This document shows, one piece after another, positions 3,262 to 28,178 of a stretch of DNA of 64,000 bases; position 1 is the stretch's first letter, and every line of letters begins with the position of its first letter. Below the pieces are notes generated by a model that searched no databases, had not been told where the DNA came from, and saw only the letters and a program-made list of their open reading frames with translations. The translations under genes and the position numbers were made by a program. Source of the stretch: Escherichia phage AV124; the sequence record OR352954, one strand, 5' to 3'.

Positions 3262-4332
3262 ATGGAAAAGTTTGAAGTGATGCGATGCTATTCCGGTAGC
3301 CTCGCTTATGGCACAAATCTTCCAACTAGTGATGTGGATATTCGGGGTCTGTTCTGCGCCCCACCTAAATTCATCCGCACGCCGTTCTTTAACATCAAAG
3401 AGCAAACCTTGGAAGATGAAGAGGATGGGAAGATTTATGAGTTGACAAACTTCATGAGATTGTTTTCAGAGATGAACCCCAACATCATTGAACTGATGTT
3501 TGTCGATGACAAAGACATTTTACAAACCTCTGAAGTTTATGAATATCTTCGCACAATGGCCCCGGCACTGCTGACCAGTAAGGTAGCGTTCTCCTTCTCT
3601 GGGTATGCGATGGCACAGCTTAAACGTATTCGCGGTCATGATAAGTGGATCAGCAATCCGCAGCCTGAAGAAAAGCCTACGCAAAAAGAGTTCTTCCGAT
3701 TAGTTCACAACTATAGTGAGAACGAATTCCTTGCCGGGGCAATTAAGCACGATCGCTTCATGGAAGCAATGAACAATCTCAACGATATGTGTATCCTTGT
3801 ACCTTATGGGAACGATATCTATGGGGTGATGGAAAACTTCAGTAGCTCAGGGATGTTCAATGCTAACGGTTCAATTCGCCATGTTGACTATCAGCAACTT
3901 TCTGACTCTGACAAGCGGAGAAAACCTGTCTTTATTGTCAAATATTTGGCAGAGGAACACAAACAGGCCAAAGAGAAGCATCGTAACTATTGGACATGGA
4001 AACAGAACCGAAATGAAGTTCGTCACCAGCTCGAAGTTGATTTTGGTTATGACACGAAACATGCGATGCACCTTGTGCGCCTGATGCGTATGGCAGAAGA
4101 GATTCTTTCTGATGGGAAGGTCCTAGTGAAGCGTCCTGATGCTCAGGAACTTCTCGACATCCGGGCAGGTAAGTGGACTCTTGACGAACTGCTCTCTTGG
4201 GCTGATGAGAAGGACCGTTATATTCGTGAGGATCTGTACAAAAAGACACAGCTTCCTAAAATGGCGGATCTTGACCTGTTTGCTAGGGTTCTCATGACGG
4301 CTCAGGATATGTGTTGGAGTAAACTGGTATGA
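3262..4332 (+). CDS. Pol-beta superfamily nucleotidyltransferase
   Basis: N-terminal GS-x9-DVD motif (YSGSLAYGTNLPTSDVDIRG) typical of Pol-beta-fold nucleotidyltransferases; SD GGAGAG upstream. Confidence 0.55.
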   Translation: MEKFEVMRCYSGSLAYGTNLPTSDVDIRGLFCAPPKFIRTPFFNIKEQTLEDEEDGKIYELTNFMRLFSEMNPNIIELMFVDDKDILQTSEVYEYLRTMAPALLTSKVAFSFSGYAMAQLKRIRGHDKWISNPQPEEKPTQKEFFRLVHNYSENEFLAGAIKHDRFMEAMNNLNDMCILVPYGNDIYGVMENFSSSGMFNANGSIRHVDYQQLSDSDKRRKPVFIVKYLAEEHKQAKEKHRNYWTWKQNRNEVRHQLEVDFGYDTKHAMHLVRLMRMAEEILSDGKVLVKRPDAQELLDIRAGKWTLDELLSWADEKDRYIREDLYKKTQLPKMADLDLFARVLMTAQDMCWSKLV

Positions 4333-4541
4333 TTGAAGCACTGGTAGGAATATTTGGTGTTGCATATTCAATCATTGGCGTGATATACTCAATCAGGATG
4401 GAAAAGGACACAGTCCTTAAGCAAATCTATAAAGCCAAGACGGACCGGGACTGGTCTGAAATTTGTTTCACCATCGGTTTTGCATGGCCCTTCGGGGCCT
4501 TAATCCACTATGTTATGAGGAGAAGAAATGCGACAGCTTGA
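4329..4541 (+). CDS. hypothetical small membrane protein
   Basis: ATGA overlap with upstream gene; hydrophobic segments. Confidence 0.4.
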   Translation: MIEALVGIFGVAYSIIGVIYSIRMEKDTVLKQIYKAKTDRDWSEICFTIGFAWPFGALIHYVMRRRNATA

Positions 4542-4704
4542 GTTTATGGGGAGAATGGTAGAACTGGTTTCCGAATGGCAATCAGAATATAAGATGCACA
4601 GGAATCTCTCCGAAGAGCCTGAGAACTGGCCCGACACCAGAGATCAGGAAGATTGGTTGGGTGATTTCTTTGTTTGGCTACAATGTAAGGGGTATACAGT
4701 ATGA
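4528..4704 (+). CDS. hypothetical small protein (58 aa)
   Basis: ATG at 4528 preceded by GAGGAGAAG; below track size cut-off; fills gap between neighbours. Confidence 0.3.
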   Translation: MRQLEFMGRMVELVSEWQSEYKMHRNLSEEPENWPDTRDQEDWLGDFFVWLQCKGYTV

Positions 4705-4937
4705 GCTATGGGCCACTGACCGCAGAGCAGGCTAAGATCCTGCAAGACCGTTATTATGAGCAGCAAGGTATCAAGAAAGTTGTCTGGCCTTCTCCCGGTG
4801 ATGGTGATACCGGAACTGTGAAATGCATGCACGACGCTTGTCCTAATTGTGGTGGCACGGGTGTCAGAAAAGATGGCACTGGTTTATGCGTTCACGGCAT
4901 CTCTTGCCCTTGCCCTAAATGCAGCTTTAAGTGCTGA
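4701..4937 (+). CDS. hypothetical Cys-rich protein (putative zinc-binding)
   Basis: CPNCGG...CVHGISCPCPKCSFKC cysteine cluster. Confidence 0.4.
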   Translation: MSYGPLTAEQAKILQDRYYEQQGIKKVVWPSPGDGDTGTVKCMHDACPNCGGTGVRKDGTGLCVHGISCPCPKCSFKC

Positions 4938-5009
4938 ATCGTCCCTATCTTATATGATAACCCTGTTTTTCATGATAAAATGGATCTATCATTAAGATAG
5001 GAGGCTAGT

Positions 5010-5489
5010 ATGTTTCAAAAGATTGTACGTGAACACCCTATCCTTCGAGAGCACTGGCATACTCTGCTGGAAAAGGGTTTTATAGAAAACTCAAAAGGTT
5101 GCATCGCTCTCGTAAGGGAGCCTGTGACAGAAGAACGAGTTCTCGTCATAAGGGATGCCAAAAACGGCATCCTTTTTTCTATCAAAGTTGGTCGTCTGGA
5201 CGTCACTAGGGGTTCAAATACCATAAGACCAACAACTTACACTTTTCGTGTTGGAGACATGGGGAAGCTCTATCCAGAACATCTGGAAGAGGCCTTTGAT
5301 AGTTATGAAGGGTTCGAAGCCTCTATTCGTGATCTCTATAGATCGTTGGATAGGATTATCAGTGAACACAAGAAAACGCTAGGTGTAAAATACCGAGTAA
5401 AAGACTGGTTCAGAAATTCCAATAACCGCTGGTTTCTCCTAGCGGCAGTTCTCTACGGCCTGTTGACGGTATTTCTGACCTTGCACTAA
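5010..5489 (+). CDS. hypothetical protein with C-terminal transmembrane helix
   Basis: SD AGGAGG before ATG; C-terminal hydrophobic stretch WFLLAAVLYGLLTVFL. Confidence 0.5.
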   Translation: MFQKIVREHPILREHWHTLLEKGFIENSKGCIALVREPVTEERVLVIRDAKNGILFSIKVGRLDVTRGSNTIRPTTYTFRVGDMGKLYPEHLEEAFDSYEGFEASIRDLYRSLDRIISEHKKTLGVKYRVKDWFRNSNNRWFLLAAVLYGLLTVFLTLH

Positions 5490-5501
5490 GAGGAGATTCT
5501 T

Positions 5502-5876
5502 ATGAGAGATCGTCAGGAGTATTATCGTCAGTATGCCGCCCGTCGTCGTGAGATTGATCGTCAGCGGCGTTCTACACCAGAAGGTAAAGCAGAACAACTT
5601 CGTATCCGTCTTGCCCGTATTGAAGCAGAGAAACGCGCTACCCTTCATAGTGAGTGGGATGAGTTTGTCAGGGATGAGGCTGATCACTTGTGTTCTGTTC
5701 GTTGTGAAGATACTGGTATCAAGTGGGAACCAGACCACATGCTACCACTAAGGGCAACCAAAGTATCCGGCCTTAACTGTGGTGATAATATACAGGTGAT
5801 ACCTGCAACTCTCAACAGGAAGAAGAAAAACCGTATGATTTATACCGAAATGAATGAATGGTTGAAAGATGTATAG
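5502..5876 (+). CDS. HNH endonuclease
   Basis: WEPDHMLPL...GLNCGDNIQVIPATLNRKK resembles the HNH His-Asn-Asn core; SD AGAGGAG. Confidence 0.5.
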   Translation: MRDRQEYYRQYAARRREIDRQRRSTPEGKAEQLRIRLARIEAEKRATLHSEWDEFVRDEADHLCSVRCEDTGIKWEPDHMLPLRATKVSGLNCGDNIQVIPATLNRKKKNRMIYTEMNEWLKDV

Positions 5877-5908
5877 AAAAAACCCGGCGATTGCCGGTTT
5901 TTTTTTTA
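5877..5908. terminator. bidirectional rho-independent terminator
   Basis: A6-CCGGC-GATT-GCCGG-T10; stem-loop flanked by A-run and T-run between convergent genes. Confidence 0.65.
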
Positions 5909-6202
5909 TTGACCTTTGGATAGCTTTTCTATCACGAGATGGTCTGAATCATCCAGGTGCATCAGGTGATCAACTCGGATATCATGCAGGTATGGGAGTC
6001 CATCAACGTGGCAAAGAAACCATGATTCGTGACGAGGATAATATCCATTTACACCGAGAACGGTCTTCTCCAGCACAAGACAACGTTTACCGTTAAGGAT
6101 ATTATTCTCCGAGAATCCATACAACAGGCAGATTGAATCAACACAAACCTTATGGTCTGGCTCATTACGATCAGGCATACCACTATCTTCTAATTTCAGC
6201 AT
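5906..6202 (-). CDS. hypothetical protein
   Basis: Minus-strand ORF inside plus-strand block; overlaps upstream ORF by 7 nt. Confidence 0.4.
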   Translation of the reverse strand: MLKLEDSGMPDRNEPDHKVCVDSICLLYGFSENNILNGKRCLVLEKTVLGVNGYYPRHESWFLCHVDGLPYLHDIRVDHLMHLDDSDHLVIEKLSKGQ

Positions 6203-6435
6203 TTTTTATCTCCAAAGTTAAGTTCGCCATTCAACTTTTGTACACGGTGCGGGAGAATTTCCTGCCACCACCAATCCTTCTCATGAAGACGATAAGACAC
6301 ATAGACCTCTACGGTATCCTCGTCCTTACGGACAGTCCTGGTATAGATATCCCGAATGGTTGCTTCGAATTGACCGTCAACAAGGACGACCTCGTAAATT
6401 TTGTACTTGTCTTGTTCAAGAATTTGTTCTGACAT
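6196..6435 (-). CDS. hypothetical protein
   Basis: Minus-strand ORF, first gene of a two-gene opposite-strand cassette. Confidence 0.4.
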   Translation of the reverse strand: MSEQILEQDKYKIYEVVLVDGQFEATIRDIYTRTVRKDEDTVEVYVSYRLHEKDWWWQEILPHRVQKLNGELNFGDKKC

Positions 6436-6644
6436 TTTATCTCCTATTTGATTCTTTTTCCACCATGTTTTTCATAGATGGAGATGACTTTTTCTAAGTC
6501 TAGCACAGAAACGGTCTCGACAAACTCCACTCATCCTGTTCAAGCTCTTCTGCACAAGTAACACCGAAATCACTATAGTTCAAAATCAACCTCCTCTAAA
6601 GTCTGTACGGGGAGTATACCAACAAATTTGGTATCAATCAACTG

Positions 6645-6672
6645 TTGACACGACCTCTTTTTCTGTCATAAT
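6645..6672 (+). promoter_or_regulatory. sigma70-like promoter (TTGACA-N16-CATAAT)
   Basis: Consensus -35 hexamer and near-consensus -10 in intergenic region. Confidence 0.4.
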
Positions 6673-6842
6673 GCCAAGAAAAACAATTTCAGAGGAGAAA
6701 TCCTTGAGCATATTGTCAAAGCTGTCACCAACAACCAGAAAAAGAGAGACCAGTTTGAGAGAGGCTCATTAAATCGGGCAGTGATGACAGTGGCTATCGA
6801 TGAGCTTTTGTATGTTGGAGATTTCATAATGAAGAGGGGCGC

Positions 6843-6992
6843 ATGAAAAAATTCTGCGTCTATGGGTGGGTGAGCGTTGACAACGGCTGGTATTTGTGCA
6901 AATCTAGTGTCAGTGAAGACGAGCTTGCCAAGTTGCTGGACTACTACCGTAAAACTTGGCGTTATGTTAAGGGGATTTCTTACAATGAATAA
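6843..6992 (+). CDS. hypothetical small protein (49 aa)
   Basis: ATG after AAGAGGGG; below track cut-off. Confidence 0.3.
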   Translation: MKKFCVYGWVSVDNGWYLCKSSVSEDELAKLLDYYRKTWRYVKGISYNE

Positions 6993-7281
6993 ATTTAGGC
7001 TAAAATGTCAGGGTGGGCGATGGTGGGTTCAGGAAAAGTTCTTTGGATTCATGTGGCTAACCATTTGGAATTCCTCTTTGACGAAAGAAAGTGCAATGGC
7101 AAAGATTGCAGAGCACGTTCAGGAAAAGGAGGATGAGTGCATTTACTATCCAACACAGGAAGAGATTATCTCCGCAGTCTCTGCTAAAATGGTGCGACCA
7201 AGTACACCTCCCTCTCCACCAGCAGACTACTCTTTAAAAAGGAGACAGATATGTTCGAATGGTTTAAGCGAAGAAAGCTAA
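6988..7281 (+). CDS. hypothetical protein
   Basis: Track ORF 6877..7281 trimmed to internal ATG overlapping upstream stop (ATGAATAA). Confidence 0.4.
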   Translation, partial: NKFRLKCQGGRWWVQEKFFGFMWLTIWNSSLTKESAMAKIAEHVQEKEDECIYYPTQEEIISAVSAKMVRPSTPPSPPADYSLKRRQICSNGLSEES

Positions 7282-7520
7282 ACCTGATAGGTACATCAAA
7301 GTGGCAAATCAACTGGACAGATACAGGGTGTCAAGAGAAAGGGGTGTGGCTATATTACCAGTCAGAAAGTGGTAGACGGGAGATCGAATCATCTGCCATT
7401 CCCTGGGTCTATAAAGGTATGGGTGGTGAAACTCGCCTCCCAGGATATCCTGAGGCCCTGACGTGGTTGCGAGGAGGCACCCTACCAAAAAGCTTTGTTG
7501 GTGTTAAGGAGACGTTATGA
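7251..7520 (+). CDS. hypothetical protein
   Basis: SD AAGGAG before ATG. Confidence 0.45.
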   Translation: MFEWFKRRKLNLIGTSKWQINWTDTGCQEKGVWLYYQSESGRREIESSAIPWVYKGMGGETRLPGYPEALTWLRGGTLPKSFVGVKETL

Positions 7521-7762
7521 TTCAAGACGATTTTGAGTTGATAAAAAGAAACCTTCAGGAGTCTAGGAGCAATGGGATTTATTTCCGTGACCCGGCATGG
7601 CTGAAAGGAATTTACATCTATCTTTCCCAAAAAGGTAGTTTGTACATGGTCTACAACTTGGAGGACATGTTTGGAGGTGAGGGTTATCGATACACCCAGA
7701 TCAACGAGTACGATCTCCCTAACCTCGGTTGTAACTTTGAGATTTGGGAAGGTTCTGTATGA
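7517..7762 (+). CDS. hypothetical protein
   Basis: ATGA overlap with upstream gene. Confidence 0.45.
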   Translation: MIQDDFELIKRNLQESRSNGIYFRDPAWLKGIYIYLSQKGSLYMVYNLEDMFGGEGYRYTQINEYDLPNLGCNFEIWEGSV

Positions 7763-7935
7763 TTGAAATCTGGAAAACCTTGGGGTGTGTCATCATGACC
7801 ATTATTATGGGGACTGGCTTGGTGCTGACAACAGAATTCCGTGAATTCTTAGGGATGTTGTTGTTTGGAATGGCATTCGCATTCTGGGCTAACCTTTTCC
7901 TTGTCCGTTTTTGGCGGCTATTAGAAAATTATTAG
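7759..7935 (+). CDS. hypothetical small membrane protein
   Basis: ATG after GGGAAGG; hydrophobic throughout. Confidence 0.4.
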   Translation: MIEIWKTLGCVIMTIIMGTGLVLTTEFREFLGMLLFGMAFAFWANLFLVRFWRLLENY

Positions 7936-7943
7936 GAGACCAC

Positions 7944-8102
7944 ATGGGAAGCACTTTTACTGTTCAATACTGGACAAACGCCTACGAAGGCGAGTATAAA
8001 TACTACGTGTTCTGGCAGGGCGAGAGCTTTGACGAGGCCATTCGGCAGATGGTAAAATGTAAGGACAAAGGCTACGGTTGCGTGAAGCTGGAATGGCGTT
8101 AA
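7944..8102 (+). CDS. hypothetical small protein
   Basis: ATG after AGGAGAC; track ORF 7911..8102 trimmed. Confidence 0.35.
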   Translation: MGSTFTVQYWTNAYEGEYKYYVFWQGESFDEAIRQMVKCKDKGYGCVKLEWR

Positions 8103-9511: not shown

Positions 9512-9940
9512 ATGATAAAACATTGCCATAATTGCAGTGCCTGTTGTGAAGTTATCGCCATAGATAACATCACGCACGAAGAATTTCACGAAAAGGTCAG
9601 GACCGGAAGAGTATCGGCTATCCACGGGGAGATGATGAAACCAATCTCCAGGGATGAGGCCTACAAACGGAATCCTCTTGTTGTTACAGGTCGTGAAGAG
9701 GTTGGTAAAGGAACAAAACACTTCACCAGCTACTTTACCTGCACAAAGCTGAAAGACAACAAGTGCTCAATATACGGGGATCGCCCGTACATGTGCAGCG
9801 GATATCCGTTCTATGACCGAGTGCCTGTGGACACACAATCACATGCTTCTCTGTGCAAGACACAGCTTCGCAGGAAGGACACCCCGTACTCCTCAACATG
9901 CACGTATGTCCCAAACCTGATCGCAGTCAAGAATATCTGA
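9512..9940 (+). CDS. YkgJ-like putative zinc/iron-chelating protein
   Basis: CHNCSACC near N-terminus and GDRPYMCSGYPF resemble the CxxCxxCC / RPxxC signature of the YkgJ family. Confidence 0.4.
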   Translation: MIKHCHNCSACCEVIAIDNITHEEFHEKVRTGRVSAIHGEMMKPISRDEAYKRNPLVVTGREEVGKGTKHFTSYFTCTKLKDNKCSIYGDRPYMCSGYPFYDRVPVDTQSHASLCKTQLRRKDTPYSSTCTYVPNLIAVKNI

Positions 9941-9950
9941 CCCACACAAC

Positions 9951-9981
9951 AAGGGAGCCTGAAGAGGCTCCTTTTCTTTTA
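9951..9981 (+). terminator. rho-independent terminator
   Basis: GGAGCCT-GAAG-AGGCTCC stem-loop followed by TTTTCTTTT, directly after last plus-strand gene. Confidence 0.6.
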
Positions 9982-9993
9982 TCTAAATTTTCC

Positions 9994-10022
9994 TTGACGT
10001 AAACAGTCAGCCCTGATATAGT
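9994..10022 (+). promoter_or_regulatory. sigma70-like promoter (TTGACG-N17-TATAGT) reading into ORF-poor region
   Basis: Hexamers with 17 nt spacing just past the terminator. Confidence 0.35.
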
Positions 10023-10834
10023 CATTATACGCCAAATCTCCTGAAGCGGGAGGATACAATCACCACCCCTGCGTGAAAGGTTGCACATCCCATTAACACA
10101 CATAATATGAAGGGTCTCCCCGATATGTCGATAAAACACCATTTCATAAACACATTGCCGTAACGTGTCGATGCCATAAACATTACGGTGCGAAGCACTT
10201 TGCCAAAGGCAAAAACCTCCGGTGCTATAAATATATCGCCTTGGGCGATTAGCCAGAGGCTAACCCGTACACGGGTAAATATATCGCGTAAACAGGCCCC
10301 TGTTTTCCCCGTATAACCACCCCTTCCCCCCGTGGGGAAATCAAAACATACCCCCTGCCGAAAATATCACTTGCCGAAAAATATCATGGCTTGGTCCTTG
10401 GGTAAAAAATATTGTATTCGCACCATCTGCGGTGTTAGACGGACAGCTCCGGGCGTCAACTATCTTTACGGATCTTTACAAAATATCATGGGCAAGGTCG
10501 ATCCGGTTCCCGGTTCCTCGGGGCCTCTTCAGGCATGATAGTTACTTGCCGAAACTAATAATAATTGGGTGTGTCAGATAGCAAGCTTATGGTTTGCCAG
10601 CTTAGAGCACGATTTGCTATTGACTTGTTTATATTTATATGAATTACACCATTTAACATAAAACACGTTATACGCACTGACCAACAACGCATAGCAGACT
10701 AATAATGCCCCAATGTTACCAGTGTGACGCATAGGACAGCCGCTTCAGGTCATTACATGGTGTGACTGTTACTGTGGTGATAGTTTCATATGTGATTATT
10801 CATGTTTTAGGGTTGTTTTGTGAATGAGACGACG

Positions 10835-10889
10835 AATGAGAATCATTATTATTTCGATTTCGAATTCAATTTCGAAATGAGAATCATTC
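10835..10889. repeat. two copies of palindrome AATGAGAATCATT flanking TTCGA-rich palindromic core
   Basis: AATGAGAATCATT at 10835-10847 and 10877-10889; related copies at 19711-19723 and 19744-19758. Confidence 0.6.
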
Positions 10890-11179
10890 CGCAAATATAA
10901 ATATTTTGTAAATTTATAAATAAAAGCTTGACGAGGGAAGAGAATCGTGTTTAGCAATACATACTCTTTGAGCATCATTATCATTTGCGACTAATTCCCA
11001 TAAACCCTTGCTACGCAAGGGATTGATAGATATTTTCGATAATAAAAACACTTGACACTTCAGATAAAATCATGCTCAAAAACAAGCCTTTTCTCATAAG
11101 ATACGATCATCATTCTAATGGTTTGTCAACCATTAAACACGAATTAATTTGATTAAACTGCTAATTGTTTACAGGGTTT

Positions 11180-11530
11180 ACTATCATCAGCGACACAATA
11201 ACACAATGCCCTTCGGGTTGTTTTCGCCACGGAAAACAATGTCCAGATTGACCAAAGGGGTTTTGTGAATCCCCTTTATCTGGACACAATAACACTAGGG
11301 CGATCAACGATAGTTGATCGGTGTTATCGTGGCGATGTGATAAAGTTTCATTGCTAATCATTACAGATGTAATGATAATATACTGTGATAATTTCGTCCT
11401 TGATCGTAGCGTCTACGAGCCACGATAACGCGAACGAGAATGCGATTTGTTCGCATTTGAGTTACCCTAGTGTTATTGTGTCGCTCGCTCCGCTCGCGCC
11501 ACTCCCCACGATTCGCGAACGAGAAATTTT
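11180..11530. repeat. nested inverted- and direct-repeat cluster (origin- or operator-like)
   Basis: GGACACAATAACACTAGGG (11283) vs reverse complement at 11464; GATCAAC-GATA-GTTGATC; GTTATCGTGG vs CCACGATAAC; CGAACGAGAA twice; several GC hairpins. Confidence 0.55.
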
Positions 11531-12142
11531 ATTGACAGAAAATGATTTCTATGCTCATAAAAAGCCAGTTCACACAATGAGTTAGATGAGGAAAGTTATC
11601 ATTATAGTGATTTATGCTCATATTCACTTCCAGTGCATAGAAATTCATGATTTATTCAGTTAATAACATGCGTTATTAATTAGGTGGGGTTGTGGGGTGA
11701 AAAGCCAGGACCGACACACAATTAAACGCAATATAAAGCGTTTTGAGCGTGGTTATCGGTTACCCTCATCATGGTATGTCTTGTGTTAGATCTCAATTAT
11801 GCACTTTTTTGCATAGCGGCGGGGCCGTGGTGTGGGTTGTTTATGGTGTGGATCTGCAAAGAGAAAAGCCAGGTAAAAACCTGGCCTTTGTGTGATTGTC
11901 TTATGACTGGCTAGCCATATTGTTTTAGATAGTTTACAGCGGAAATTATTGCTTGTGCTCGGCTGTACTCTTCGCCGTTCACACGATAGCGCCGCGCGCC
12001 TTTATGGCACTGGGTGATCATAACCTGGATTATTCCATCCATAACATAGAATGCTTTACTTACGAATAAAATCATCTGATACTTTGCAACCGTGATCCGT
12101 GGCGTATGTTATCGCGTCATCAATTTTTAACATGTCACAACC

Positions 12143-12355
12143 TCATTCATTGATTAGTTTAAATTCCGCTTCAGGGTGATAAAGATCAGCCATATAGCGC
12201 ATTTTGTAATAGAAAGATACTTCCACAATGTGAGGCGCTTCGATTTCTATTTGTGTGATGAGAACGCTACCCGGCTTAAATCCTGGGGCGATGTCCGGTA
12301 ATTCGATAATCATTCCGCCTTTTAAATCTTTCGCTTTTACAGTTCCCATGATCAT
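12143..12355 (-). CDS. hypothetical protein
   Basis: First ORF of leftward block; ATGA overlap with upstream gene. Confidence 0.45.
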   Translation of the reverse strand: MIMGTVKAKDLKGGMIIELPDIAPGFKPGSVLITQIEIEAPHIVEVSFYYKMRYMADLYHPEAEFKLINE

Positions 12356-26171: not shown

Positions 26172-27037
26172 TACACCACCTTGTTGAGCATTGCTGCAAC
26201 TTTTGGCAGGCTCAGGCCCGTCTGGATCATCAGTTGGGTCATCGCAGTTTCCATTTTCTTGGAGACAATGATGAAATTATCTTTGGCAAAGCCAATGTTC
26301 AGATCCAGAATCAGAATAGATTTCGGTTCTTCAGTTAATTTTTCACCAGATAAGGCACAGGTGTTGCGAATGTATCGTGCCTTAAATTGCGAATAGGTGA
26401 CCGATACAGACATTCCAGCCTCGTGGAAGGTGTTGCAGTAACGGGCATACGCCAATGCAACAGAGACGTCCTCAGGCAACTTCTGGGCCTCTTTCTGAGC
26501 ACTTGTCTCTTCCGCCGCAGGTTTTTGGTTGTGAACATGTTCTTCGGCATTATCCATAGCGTTCTGCATTGTCTCTTCAGTATTCATTTCGTTCTCCTGT
26601 TGTGGGATATATTTGGTTTTCAGTTTTTCAAGGTGGTCTTTGGACATGTTCAACATCATGGCCTTTACTATTTCGCGATCTAAAGGATCTTGAATCAGTA
26701 TAGATGTTGTCTTGTCAACTAAACGGTCCTTAAGTTGGTTTGCGCGAAGCATAACCACACAGACGTTTCCCCGGACATACCCTTTCGAGTCATCGATTCT
26801 CTCTATAGACGGATACCTTGGGTTAGCTTCCTCACCATCATTCGCGATGTTGGTACTGAAAGGTAGCCCCGTGTAATCACAAGAGCCGTGGCCCAAAAGC
26901 TTGAATCCGAGCATACGCATATCTTGCATTGTTAAATCACAGTCAAGGCCCCGTTTTCGAGCATTCAACTTCTTATGCTTCAAACGATTCCTCAACTTTT
27001 CCACTTCTTCAGGTGTAAACTCTTGTAATACAGACAT
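26171..27037 (-). CDS. HNH endonuclease-like protein
   Basis: CDYTGLPF...PSIERIDDSKGYVRGNVCVVMLRANQLK matches phage HNH nuclease core; SD AAGGAG. Confidence 0.5.
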   Translation of the reverse strand: MSVLQEFTPEEVEKLRNRLKHKKLNARKRGLDCDLTMQDMRMLGFKLLGHGSCDYTGLPFSTNIANDGEEANPRYPSIERIDDSKGYVRGNVCVVMLRANQLKDRLVDKTTSILIQDPLDREIVKAMMLNMSKDHLEKLKTKYIPQQENEMNTEETMQNAMDNAEEHVHNQKPAAEETSAQKEAQKLPEDVSVALAYARYCNTFHEAGMSVSVTYSQFKARYIRNTCALSGEKLTEEPKSILILDLNIGFAKDNFIIVSKKMETAMTQLMIQTGLSLPKVAAMLNKVV

Positions 27038-27076
27038 TTCTAACTCCTTGGGTCTTGCCCGTTCTTAGTAAGGTGA

Positions 27077-27104
27077 TTATCACCATTCGGAAAAGGGTTG
27101 TCAA
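27077..27104 (-). promoter_or_regulatory. sigma70 consensus promoter TTGACA-N17-GATAAT (minus strand) in divergent region
   Basis: Minus-strand read TTGACA ACCCTTTTCCGAATGGT GATAAT upstream of SD AAGGAG and ATG at 27037. Confidence 0.5.
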
Positions 27105-27170
27105 CCCTTGATTTCTAAAAAGTGGCGGTGTATCTTTGTCCATTATTCGTATAAGAGGGTAAGTGAGATT

Positions 27171-28178
27171 ATGAGCAAAGTAGATATTAATGTAAAACCA
27201 AACGAGGCTTGGAATGAGGAGCGAGATTTCATAGATAAGTTGTTACAAGGGAAGCAGGCTGCTCAAGAGAGATTTCTTTCAACTTTTGAGAGGGACAGAC
27301 ATGTTGACAATCCCATCACCCGCTTTATCGAGTATCTTCGTGGGGTGGGGGATCAGAATCCTGTGTTGGAAATTGTTTTGTCTTGCCTTCATAAACTTCC
27401 CACACATGGCGGACCTTTTTATTGGGAATGGTTTGATGGTAATGATGAGGATGTGATGGATTTCGCTTTTGATATGAATCGGAAGACTACCTCTCATTCC
27501 CTATCCAGTATGGTGGCAGAGCATAGAACACATCGCACAGGCGGAAATCATCCTTGGTCAGATCGTTTAACAGAGACAGTGGAACTTTGTTTTCATGGTC
27601 ATGGGAATAGTGAGGCGTTTAAATGCTCGTTCTGGGATTTTTCACACCGTACCCGCAATTTTCTTTATCATTTGAAGCCTCTTCTTGAGGATATGTCGAA
27701 TGGGGATGACCTTCGTTTAGTTGTAGAGTATGCGAGTCATCAAAGAAATGCCTCGATATCGTGGAAGAATCTCCCTGCTGGTCGATTTGAACTTCTGCAT
27801 GTGAGGCTGGTTTGTGGTGACTTGGTTCTTTACTCTGACTATCTTGAGCCTTCGGCGTTCGATCGTGTTTGTAGCCAACTGAACCATTCTGTTATCAACA
27901 TCATGAACAGAAAGATCGCTAATAAGGCACGTAAAGCAATGTTCGTTTGTTCTCCGAAAGAAACGATGTTCCACTTGGAATATGACCCCAAGCTACAGAG
28001 CATGATGGAGGGGGACTCCCCGACAGAAGAAGAACTCATGATGATGTCTATTGCAGGATATGAAGATGAGTTTTGGCTTGACAACGTAAAATCTTTCGAT
28101 AGACTGAACATAAAACCCTTTAACCTAGAGGAAGCTGTCAAATGGTATCAACAGACAAGAGTTGTATTCAAGCTTTAA
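27171..28178 (+). CDS. hypothetical protein
   Basis: First gene of rightward block; track ORF 27108 trimmed to ATG after AGAGGG. Confidence 0.5.
   Translation: MSKVDINVKPNEAWNEERDFIDKLLQGKQAAQERFLSTFERDRHVDNPITRFIEYLRGVGDQNPVLEIVLSCLHKLPTHGGPFYWEWFDGNDEDVMDFAFDMNRKTTSHSLSSMVAEHRTHRTGGNHPWSDRLTETVELCFHGHGNSEAFKCSFWDFSHRTRNFLYHLKPLLEDMSNGDDLRLVVEYASHQRNASISWKNLPAGRFELLHVRLVCGDLVLYSDYLEPSAFDRVCSQLNHSVINIMNRKIANKARKAMFVCSPKETMFHLEYDPKLQSMMEGDSPTEEELMMMSIAGYEDEFWLDNVKSFDRLNIKPFNLEEAVKWYQQTRVVFKL

Follow-up and report, generated by a model that had tools for sequence, protein, structure and literature searches.

Vequintavirinae are virulent phages, and one of them, Proteus phage Mydo, carries what is the closest described counterpart of the locus reported here, i.e. 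the unit formed by gp106 and gp107, which is flanked by annotated 'terminator' features and shares slot, orientation, terminator and promoters with our locus. A second homologous unit, gp173 of phage PVP-SE1, contains only one of the two genes concerned (gene B below), and both of its divergent promoters as well as both of its bidirectional terminators are annotated in the PVP-SE1 record. Other kinds of systems also share features with the locus, among them toxin-antitoxin operons, some of whose toxins (CcdB, MazF) have SH3-like barrels, and homing endonucleases. Among the latter, CapR-type domains have been described as the DNA binding domains of putative T5orf172/GIY-YIG homing endonucleases (10.1101/2020.11.28.402263). 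Our locus is found in a stretch of 64,000 nucleotides of Escherichia phage AV124 (sequence record OR352954), which is referred to as the window in the following. A search of the rV5 genome paper and of the Vequintavirinae transcriptome literature returned nothing on this unit, and the records of related phages annotate it as hypothetical genes. Judged by its sequence, the unit is an ordinary conserved antiparallel operon, presumably expressed early, and not a toxin-antitoxin pair or a recently inserted moron, although a preliminary description of the window had likened its layout to a moron or a small toxin-antitoxin-like insertion.

When the region 4500-8000 of the window was compared with known sequences by megablast, 52 phage records matched at 90-95% identity, all of them Vequintavirinae and chiefly Mydovirus, the Mydovirus matches being Klebsiella phages KB57, KpS8, BIS47, KPP-1 and KP12, Proteus phage Mydo and Raoultella phage Ro1. 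On sequence similarity, the phage of the window is therefore classed as a Mydovirus-like member of the Vequintavirinae. The 79-aa protein described below matches a protein of Escherichia phage AV124 at 100% identity. No tRNAs were found within the window.

The coordinates of the features discussed in this paper are collected in Table 1. As stated in the preliminary description, the ORF list contains two minus-strand ORFs of 79 and 98 aa (genes A and B, respectively) that overlap by 7 nt (ATGCTGA), and the cassette does run against the local direction of transcription, the genes on both sides (up to 5876 and from 6843) being oriented rightward. Gene A is preceded by the Shine-Dalgarno sequence AGGAG (6445-6441), while that of gene B, GGAG (6213-6210), is located within the last codons of gene A, a position which implies translational coupling of the two genes. 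The same arrangement is seen in GAP31 and in a metagenomic relative (overlap there TAATG). The product of the HNH/endonuclease VII-like gene matches PHROG 1035 'endonuclease VII' (E 1.4e-19), with no match above threshold in a Pfam search, and the 49-aa gene on the other side is conserved in Mydo, KB57, KP12 and Ro1. Two plus-strand ORFs that overlap the cassette (5869-6096 and 6133-6432) were considered and rejected in favour of the minus-strand frames, because conservation, in-frame indels and dN/dS all match the latter. Judging from the sequence, the two small minus-strand genes make up a genuine operon, for which a separate promoter and a terminator are predicted.

Table 1. Features of the A-B locus and its immediate surroundings (positions in the window)
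Feature	Position	Strand	Description
HNH/endonuclease VII-like gene	5502..5876	+	124 aa; last gene of the upstream rightward operon
Bidirectional intrinsic terminator (predicted)	5878-5907	both	A-run, CCGGC/GCCGG stem (5884-5897, 4-nt loop), T-run
Gene B	5906-6202	-	98 aa, ATG start; acidic, pI 5.5; conserved core of the slot
Gene A	6196-6435	-	79 aa, ATG start; acidic, pI 5.1; predicted SH3/Tudor-like barrel; accessory upstream partner
3' endonuclease remnant	6444..6518	-	Last ~25 codons and stop of a putative CapR-type homing-endonuclease gene
5' endonuclease remnant	6500..6583	-	Ribosome-binding site, TTG start, ~24 codons
Predicted sigma-70-type cassette promoter	6641-6613	-	TTGATT-N17-TATACT; 9/12 consensus positions; TG extension flagged
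Rightward promoter (predicted)	6645-6672	+	TTGACA-N16-CATAAT; TG extension; 11/12 consensus positions
5'-truncated 67-aa gene remnant	6691..6846	+	Intact counterparts: Mydo gp105, KB57_167
First intact gene of the downstream rightward operon	6843..6992	+	49 aa; PHROG 2381, E 7e-20

Both genes are conserved in the manner of protein coding sequences. Pairwise Nei-Gojobori comparisons with Mydo, KP12, KB57 and Ro1, each based on 9-22 synonymous differences, gave dN/dS values of 0.05-0.14 for gene A and 0.02-0.08 for gene B, which resemble those of the neighbouring genes, the HNH/endonuclease VII-like gene yielding 0.01-0.04 against its relatives. Furthermore, the indels in the protein alignments across genera are in frame. 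A and B are genuine genes under strong purifying selection. In an alignment of 25 B sequences reaching down to 34% identity, nine residues are invariant (P10, D11, R12, D16, G29, N37, G38, L80 and D87) and six are nearly so (G8, N13, Y28, L36, G68 and I91); the alignment of A contains 21 invariant residues.

The structures predicted for the two proteins are alike in kind, both being modelled as small acidic SH3-like barrels. For B, an SH3/KOW-like barrel is predicted, together with a helix at the C-terminus and an extended stretch at the N-terminus that bears the PDRN..D motif. For A, the best two of five AF2 models reach pLDDT values of 75-80, and the other three 52-57; a helix-turn-helix (HTH), ribbon-helix-helix (RHH) or AbrB-like fold is absent from its predicted structure. 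The two proteins are nevertheless not paralogues as far as can be detected by hhalign profile comparison, in which they were unrelated. Searches of Pfam, NCBIfam, PADLOC and the PDB, with single sequences as well as with profiles, gave no functional match for either of them, the matches in PHROGs were solely to families of unknown function, and those in BFVD solely to uncharacterised viral proteins. A similarity of A to eL15, which extends over about 25 residues (E 0.01-0.07), did not reach the threshold and was put down to chance. An exhaustive profile search with B in 1.8 billion representatives retrieved 15 clusters, and all the cases that were traced are in phage-like contexts; the lone long match to this profile, the YDG-repeat protein P0090 of 1,159 aa, was dismissed as spurious. 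No relatives of B were found in 72,556 plasmids, and the DNA of the cassette had no match in 5,426 complete E. coli genomes.

On its left side, the cassette ends at the symmetric A-run/hairpin/T-run element that the preliminary description had proposed as a terminator common to the HNH gene and the cassette, and both the terminator scan, which found the element on both strands, and folding support this. The element fills the entire 29-nt gap between the stop of the HNH gene (5876) and that of gene B (5906), and consists of a 5-bp GC stem followed by 10 T in the plus-strand transcript and by 6 T in the minus-strand transcript. Its folding energies are -14.3 kcal/mol (plus) and -12.1 kcal/mol (minus), with z of about -4 and none of 200 shuffled sequences as stable. 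Equivalent elements are annotated in the Mydo and PVP-SE1 records, and the terminator is retained in relatives although its sequence has changed. The element has a 6-bp version in Mydo and an inverted loop in contig L018 (see below), while the stem in PVP-SE1 is CCCGCC/GGCGGG, a difference in sequence which indicates that the structure of the terminator is conserved rather than its sequence.

On the right side, the TTGACA-N16-CATAAT promoter noted earlier is present, and the exact pattern has a chance expectation of only 0.01 in the window, but it points rightward, away from the cassette, and probably serves the downstream plus-strand operon. The candidate promoter of the cassette itself is located on the opposite strand, the two -35 elements lying back-to-back 3 nt apart (TGTCAA-CAG-TTGATT). 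As this minus-strand promoter agrees with the consensus at only 9 of 12 positions, its predicted use rests on conservation, which we have evaluated in 11 loci from three genera oriented in the cassette direction. The back-to-back module, in the form of TGTCAA-N3/4-TTGAYY, is found in all 11 loci, with the rightward promoter (...ATTATG...TGTCAA in this orientation) 3-4 nt from the cassette -35. The latter reads TTGATT, TTGATC, TTGACT, TTGACA or TTGCTT, and is separated by 16-17 nt from a -10 element (TATACT, TATAAT or TATGAT) that is clear in most loci and weak in GAP31 and in contigs L013 and L014. Wherever the locus is intact, the -10 element sits 28-31 nt before the first start codon; the cassette promoter thus combines hexamers within the 16-18 nt spacing of sigma-70-type promoters with a conserved distance to the first gene. 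A second module of this kind, TGTCAA-CCC-TTGATT, was found at 27099-27113 of the window, at another strand switch, and the recurring back-to-back arrangement seems to be a layout typical of the phage.

The position of the cassette in the genome is also conserved. The order of the slot is an RlaP nucleotidyltransferase, small genes, a virion structural protein and the endonuclease VII-like gene, followed by B, and B is antiparallel in this slot in the Mydovirus phages Mydo, KB57, KP12 and Ro1, in the Seunavirus phages GAP31, FENT2 and PVP-SE1, and in the Henunavirus phages Hena1 and pEp_SNUABM_01. The B protein of the window is 95% identical to that of Mydo and 55% identical to that of PVP-SE1, and both the slot and the opposite strand are retained even in metagenomic and assembly contigs whose B is just 38-49% identical. 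By tblastn, B was detected in 62 records and the neighbouring virion protein, which was used as a marker, in 174. Outside Escherichia phages and rV5-like phages mislabelled as 'Campylobacter', the counts of B and marker are equal for each host genus (Klebsiella, 26; Salmonella, 14; Cronobacter, 7; Erwinia, 6; Raoultella, Proteus and Enterobacter, 2 each), and all 62 non-Vequintavirus relatives carrying the marker gene have B in this slot, antiparallel to its neighbours. In Vequintavirus FV3, the whole region is on one strand and lacks B. As only this distant genus is without the slot, any insertion must have been ancient, before the split of the three genera. The GC content of the cassette is 0.40-0.42, compared with 0.42-0.49 in the flanks, and the GC skew flips with the coding strand only. 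The synteny comparison that the preliminary description had proposed for its view of the cassette as an insertion thus found B in all the relatives that were examined from Mydovirus, Seunavirus and Henunavirus; with the slot fixed across three genera, native composition and no insertion signature, a recent insertion is not supported, and what was observed is essentially the outcome that would speak against one.

The two genes are not inseparable, and they differ in how faithfully they occupy the slot. B occurs without A in contig L013 and in Salmonella phages of the PVP-SE1 type, and in the Henunavirus phages B is paired with a basic protein of 138-190 aa to which A showed no relatedness by hhalign. 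Conversely, the Stephanstirmvirinae Klebsiella phages FBKp34 and 05F01 have A without B, co-directional with its neighbours. The clearest case of exchange is provided by contig L018, in which the HNH gene, A, the gap and the 49-aa gene match those of the window at 97-100% identity (99.8-100% in the intergenic DNA and A, the A proteins being identical), and which carries in place of the B of the window a 103-aa allele of the Seunavirus type with 62.5% nucleotide and about 50% amino-acid identity. The replacement spans from about codon 9 of B to the terminator. As far as these sequences go, B is the constant core of the slot, and A is a dispensable and exchangeable companion.

What had been described as about 400 bp of non-coding sequence next to the cassette is a gap of 407 bp (6436-6842) that indeed has no intact gene, but it bears two deletion scars and the remnants of genes. 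The corresponding intergenic region of Mydo, by comparison, is 121 bp long and is accompanied by an intact 67-aa gene. The window was aligned with the KB57 locus (L008), which carries an intact KB57_166: window 5401-6518 aligns with L008 3799-2685 at 94% identity, 6513-6702 with 1189-1000 at 85%, and 6691-7211 with 951-432, so that about 1,495 bp, nearly all of KB57_166, are absent from the window. KB57_166 (546 aa) is annotated as an endonuclease, is located upstream of A in the same operon, and contains three CapR domains (E 1.8e-34) and DUF723, with no nuclease domain above threshold. Both ends of this gene are thus still recognisable in the window at the same site. The 3' remnant reads, in its native frame, ETVSVLDLEKVISIYEKHGGKRIK followed by the stop, and matches the C-terminus of KB57_166; the 5' remnant is joined to it out of frame, forming a leader ORF of 27 codons (6583-6500) with the translation LNYSDFGVTCAEELEQDEWSLSRPFLC and a stop. 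The junction of the deletion is at the microhomology (A/G)AGACC, at about 6513-6518.

The second scar concerns the 67-aa gene. A deletion of 48 bp between exact 12-bp repeats (AGAGGAGAAATC, surviving copy at 6691-6702) has removed its ATG and 16 codons, and its remaining frame, 6703-6846 with the TGA at 6844-6846, has no usual start codon; window 6691-6982 aligns with the Mydo locus (L001 3752-4043) at 95% identity. Two metagenome contigs that come from different runs have the same 407-bp gap at 100% and 99.8% identity, which indicates a natural lineage rather than an assembly artefact, and metagenomic contig L017 matches the window at 100% identity throughout the locus. A search of Rfam with the gap and the terminator gave sub-threshold matches only and no structured RNA. 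As a result of the deletion remnants, the predicted leader upstream of A is 177 nt long in the window, compared with about 30 nt at intact loci, and the leader ORF and the long leader could alter the expression of A and B.

Other endonuclease genes are found at this locus in the relatives. KP12_225 (321 aa), a shorter relative of KB57_166, occupies the same place and has CapR and a sub-threshold GIY-YIG/MUG113 match, FENT2 has another endonuclease gene at the same position upstream of A, and gp071 of Ro1, an HNH_3 endonuclease (E 6e-11), is inserted in the 3' end of A. To judge by these sequences, the signatures of insertion and deletion at the locus belong to the putative homing-endonuclease genes and not to the A-B pair.

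Of the explanations that compete with an old and fixed unit, the one closest to the preliminary description is that of a moron, i.e. a fitness unit with transcription of its own that was acquired horizontally and entered between two phage genes in fairly recent times. The predicted promoter and terminator of its own and the opposite orientation agree with such a unit; in addition, Vequintavirus FV3 has no such slot, which implies a single gain or loss deep in the subfamily, and A alone occurs in another subfamily, so at least A has moved. The self-contained architecture seen in the preliminary description therefore stands, with a predicted promoter and a shared terminator, while a recent insertion is not supported, B being conserved across genera. 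No Mydovirus, Seunavirus or Henunavirus record lacks B at this site, its divergence (to 38% identity) follows that of the backbone, its composition is not deviant, and neither flanking repeats nor empty sites, and hence no presence/absence pattern with an insertion signature, are seen among the relatives. Moreover, the operons on either side probably make use of the bidirectional terminator and the divergent promoter as well, which makes the unit part of the transcription plan of the genome, and the phages being virulent, there is no prophage state for a moron to act in. We therefore regard a moron as unlikely. It is still less likely that A and B are the cargo or accessory of a recurrent homing endonuclease, for instance by protecting the genome or regulating the endonuclease, as could be suggested by the CapR-type genes that directly precede A within its operon in KB57, KP12 and FENT2, the HNH_3 gene in the 3' end of Ro1 A, the remnant in the window, and the far greater divergence of A than of B between carriers and non-carriers (dS 0.68 vs 0.26). 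Against this, B occurs without an endonuclease gene in Mydo, GAP31, PVP-SE1, the Henunavirus phages and contigs L013 and L014, and in the lineage of the window A and B are still under purifying selection after the endonuclease was lost. A simpler reading is that the endonuclease genes exploit a tolerated, promoter-proximal site.

The toxin-antitoxin-like layout could be taken to mean a type II system, with A as the antitoxin and B as the toxin, acting in addiction, abortive infection or as an anti-defence decoy. The order of the genes, their sizes, the overlapping stop and start and the single promoter all resemble type II operons, and so do the SH3-like barrels, given those of CcdB and MazF. 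A and B are small, adjacent and overlapping, as the genes of such modules are, but neither family homology nor co-inheritance of cognate partners is seen: there is no match in Pfam, NCBIfam, PADLOC or the PDB and no HTH, RHH or AbrB-like fold in A, each gene occurs without the other (B in PVP-SE1-type phages and L013, A in Stephanstirmvirinae), the Henunavirus partner is unrelated, and in L018 an identical A stands beside a B of about 50% amino-acid identity. The cases traced among the 15 clusters of the B family are, furthermore, all in phage-like contexts, and nothing was found in plasmids or E. coli genomes. With separable partners, no family match and no relatives in the plasmids and E. 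coli genomes searched, the proposal is unsupported, and we consider it highly improbable. The least probable of the explanations is that the segment is mainly transcriptional punctuation, a terminator and divergent promoters, with the ORFs being incidental. The conserved terminator and promoter module probably does serve the neighbouring operons as well, and a similar back-to-back module exists at the other strand switch (27099-27113); on the contrary, dN/dS values of 0.02-0.14 with many synonymous changes, the nine invariant residues of B including the PDR..D motif, the conserved ribosome-binding sites and coupling, and the confident fold predictions for A (in the best two of five models) and B are those of genes.

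We therefore favour, with a probability of roughly 0.7, the reading that A and B constitute an old, positionally fixed and autonomous transcription unit of a virulent Mydovirus-like phage, encoding small proteins predicted to be SH3-like. The anatomy of the unit, its conservation and purifying selection, the separability of A and B and the two scars are read directly from the sequences; the use of the promoters, the timing and the function of the unit are what we infer from sequence and position. Host RNA polymerase would start at the predicted sigma-70-type promoter, which stands back-to-back with the one predicted for the next, rightward operon, and the transcript would run leftward through a 177-nt leader, which consists of the out-of-frame wreck of the deleted putative CapR-type homing-endonuclease gene. 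It would then cover gene A and the translationally coupled gene B, and stop at the hairpin that would also terminate the converging upstream operon. A and B would act early by binding components of the host, and would be neither enzymes nor virion parts nor a toxin-antitoxin pair; this host-binding role and a host-dependent target are suggested by the size and charge of the proteins, their position in the genome and one allele swap. In particular, the exchange of whole B alleles between otherwise near-identical genomes suggests that the target of B may vary between hosts.

A more specific proposal goes further than we would readily commit to, and is rather improbable: B might be the founder of a new and narrow SH3/KOW-like effector family, marked by the conserved PDRN..D segment and directed at a host machine that differs by enterobacterial genus, e.g. 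a component of transcription, translation or defence, with A as an optional modulator. If true, this would explain why the whole of B is exchanged by recombination between otherwise identical genomes, and the antiparallel, insulated placement would give the unit its own timing, possibly with silencing by convergent read-through from upstream. Whatever the function, a layout that appeared toxin-antitoxin-like or moron-like is, by our comparison, a constant element in how Mydovirus, Seunavirus and Henunavirus organise their transcription, and many such phages are therapy candidates against Klebsiella, Salmonella and Cronobacter. B, an orphan that is always antiparallel and whose alleles are swapped whole, would be a reasonable candidate for a host-specific early effector. 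In addition, the locus appears to be a hotspot of putative homing endonucleases, and the window offers a clean example of their decay through deletions at microhomology and direct repeats, with a long leader left behind.

Compared with known systems, the two proteins are closest in predicted architecture to the KOW domains of Spt5/NusG, PsaE and the chromo domain of MRG15, but they have no sequence similarity to these (no match to Pfam KOW or in the PDB). The predicted structure does show the five-stranded SH3-like barrel expected of a KOW domain, while the Pfam KOW search gave no match and none of the 25 members of the B family had a Pfam hit; moreover, B adds the N-terminal PDRN..D segment and an acidic C-terminal helix to the barrel of KOW, Tudor or chromo-like domains. 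With type II toxin-antitoxin operons, the unit shares two small, overlapping and (as predicted) co-transcribed genes, the smaller one upstream, and it differs from them in that A and B are separable and exchangeable, and lack family homology as well as bacterial or plasmid relatives. KB57_166, KP12_225 and Ro1 gp071 occur sporadically at this locus in the manner of the free-standing homing-endonuclease genes of T4-like and ICP1-like phages (GIY-YIG/T5orf172 with CapR-type DNA binding domains; HNH_3), and the decayed copy in the window keeps only about 50 codons, out of frame. Finally, the unit resembles the morons of lambdoid phages in forming a self-contained unit of transcription that is set between two genes of an extended operon series, and it departs from them in belonging to a virulent phage, in its position fixed across genera, in its native composition and in the control elements that it shares with its neighbours.

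The divergence between the A gene of the antiparallel A-B operon (window 6196-6435, minus strand) and its counterpart in phage Mydo (3343-3582) lies far above that of the neighbouring genes, and it follows the presence of the CapR-type homing-endonuclease gene upstream of A. The phages that carry this endonuclease or its remnant (AV124, i.e. the window, KP12 and KB57) share an A N-terminus of the form MSEQ/E..., whereas that of Mydo, a non-carrier, begins MPHK.... When the carriers are compared with Mydo, A has a dS of 0.65-0.76, well above that of B (0.26) and of the HNH gene (0.33), and the homology between the window and Mydo stops 10 bp into the 5' end of A. Judged from these sequences, the raised divergence of A is consistent with either a co-conversion tract or target-site divergence beside a homing-endonuclease site.

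A itself has been entered by another homing-endonuclease gene in phage Ro1 (see the table), where the HNH_3 insertion cuts A to 68 aa and re-employs its final ~22 nt, together with the ribosome-binding site of B and the 7-nt overlap with B. In the metagenome contig logan:SRR24653453 (3234-3592, compared with window 5860-6202), only B is swapped: apart from B, the contig is 97-100% identical to the window around the locus, and its B is a 103-aa Seunavirus-type allele with 62.5% nucleotide identity to that of the window. The swapped tract runs from about codon 9 of B to the terminator, whose hairpin loop is inverted between the two (GATT in the contig, AATC in the window).

Positions of features in the window and in related phages
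Feature	Record	Position	Remark
RlaP-family (PF10127) nucleotidyltransferase	Window	3262-4332	356 aa; E 9e-15
Second back-to-back -35/-35 module, TGTCAA-CCC-TTGATT	Window	27099-27113	context 27030-27190
HNH_3 homing-endonuclease gene	Ro1	1920-2507	195 aa; inserted in 3' end of A
Upstream partner of B, Henunavirus	Hena1	1930-2502	
Upstream partner of B, Henunavirus	pEp_SNUABM_01	1816-2511	

The nucleotidyltransferase is a landmark upstream of the operon's slot, kept in all relatives examined. Further along the window, the stretch 9940-12355, free of ORFs of at least 75 aa on both strands, separates the end of the rightward block from the start of the long leftward one; no tRNA genes were found across the whole window. 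The second promoter module, a pattern expected by chance 0.05 times in the window, sits where a leftward gene block gives way to a rightward one, flanked by plausible candidate -10 elements (GATAAT leftward, TATCTT rightward).

The neighbouring virion-protein search also returned 16 'Campylobacter phage' records (MG0656xx) with an rV5-type virion protein, at 31-34% identity, the same as for Escherichia Vequintavirus phages. They look like rV5-like coliphages that were named after the source they were isolated from, and not like genuine phages of Campylobacter.

In Henunavirus, B has a different upstream partner, a basic protein of ~190 aa (pI 9.1) that has no match in Pfam. The pEp_SNUABM_01 homologue looks too short as annotated, its start apparently placed too far downstream, since ~150 nt upstream of that start there is a perfect TTGACA-N16-TATAAT promoter, and also an ATG with GGAGG. 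The N-terminus of the partner, QPTLYSCVTTCIAMLLG, is reminiscent of the catalytic cysteine motif of papain/C39-like proteins.
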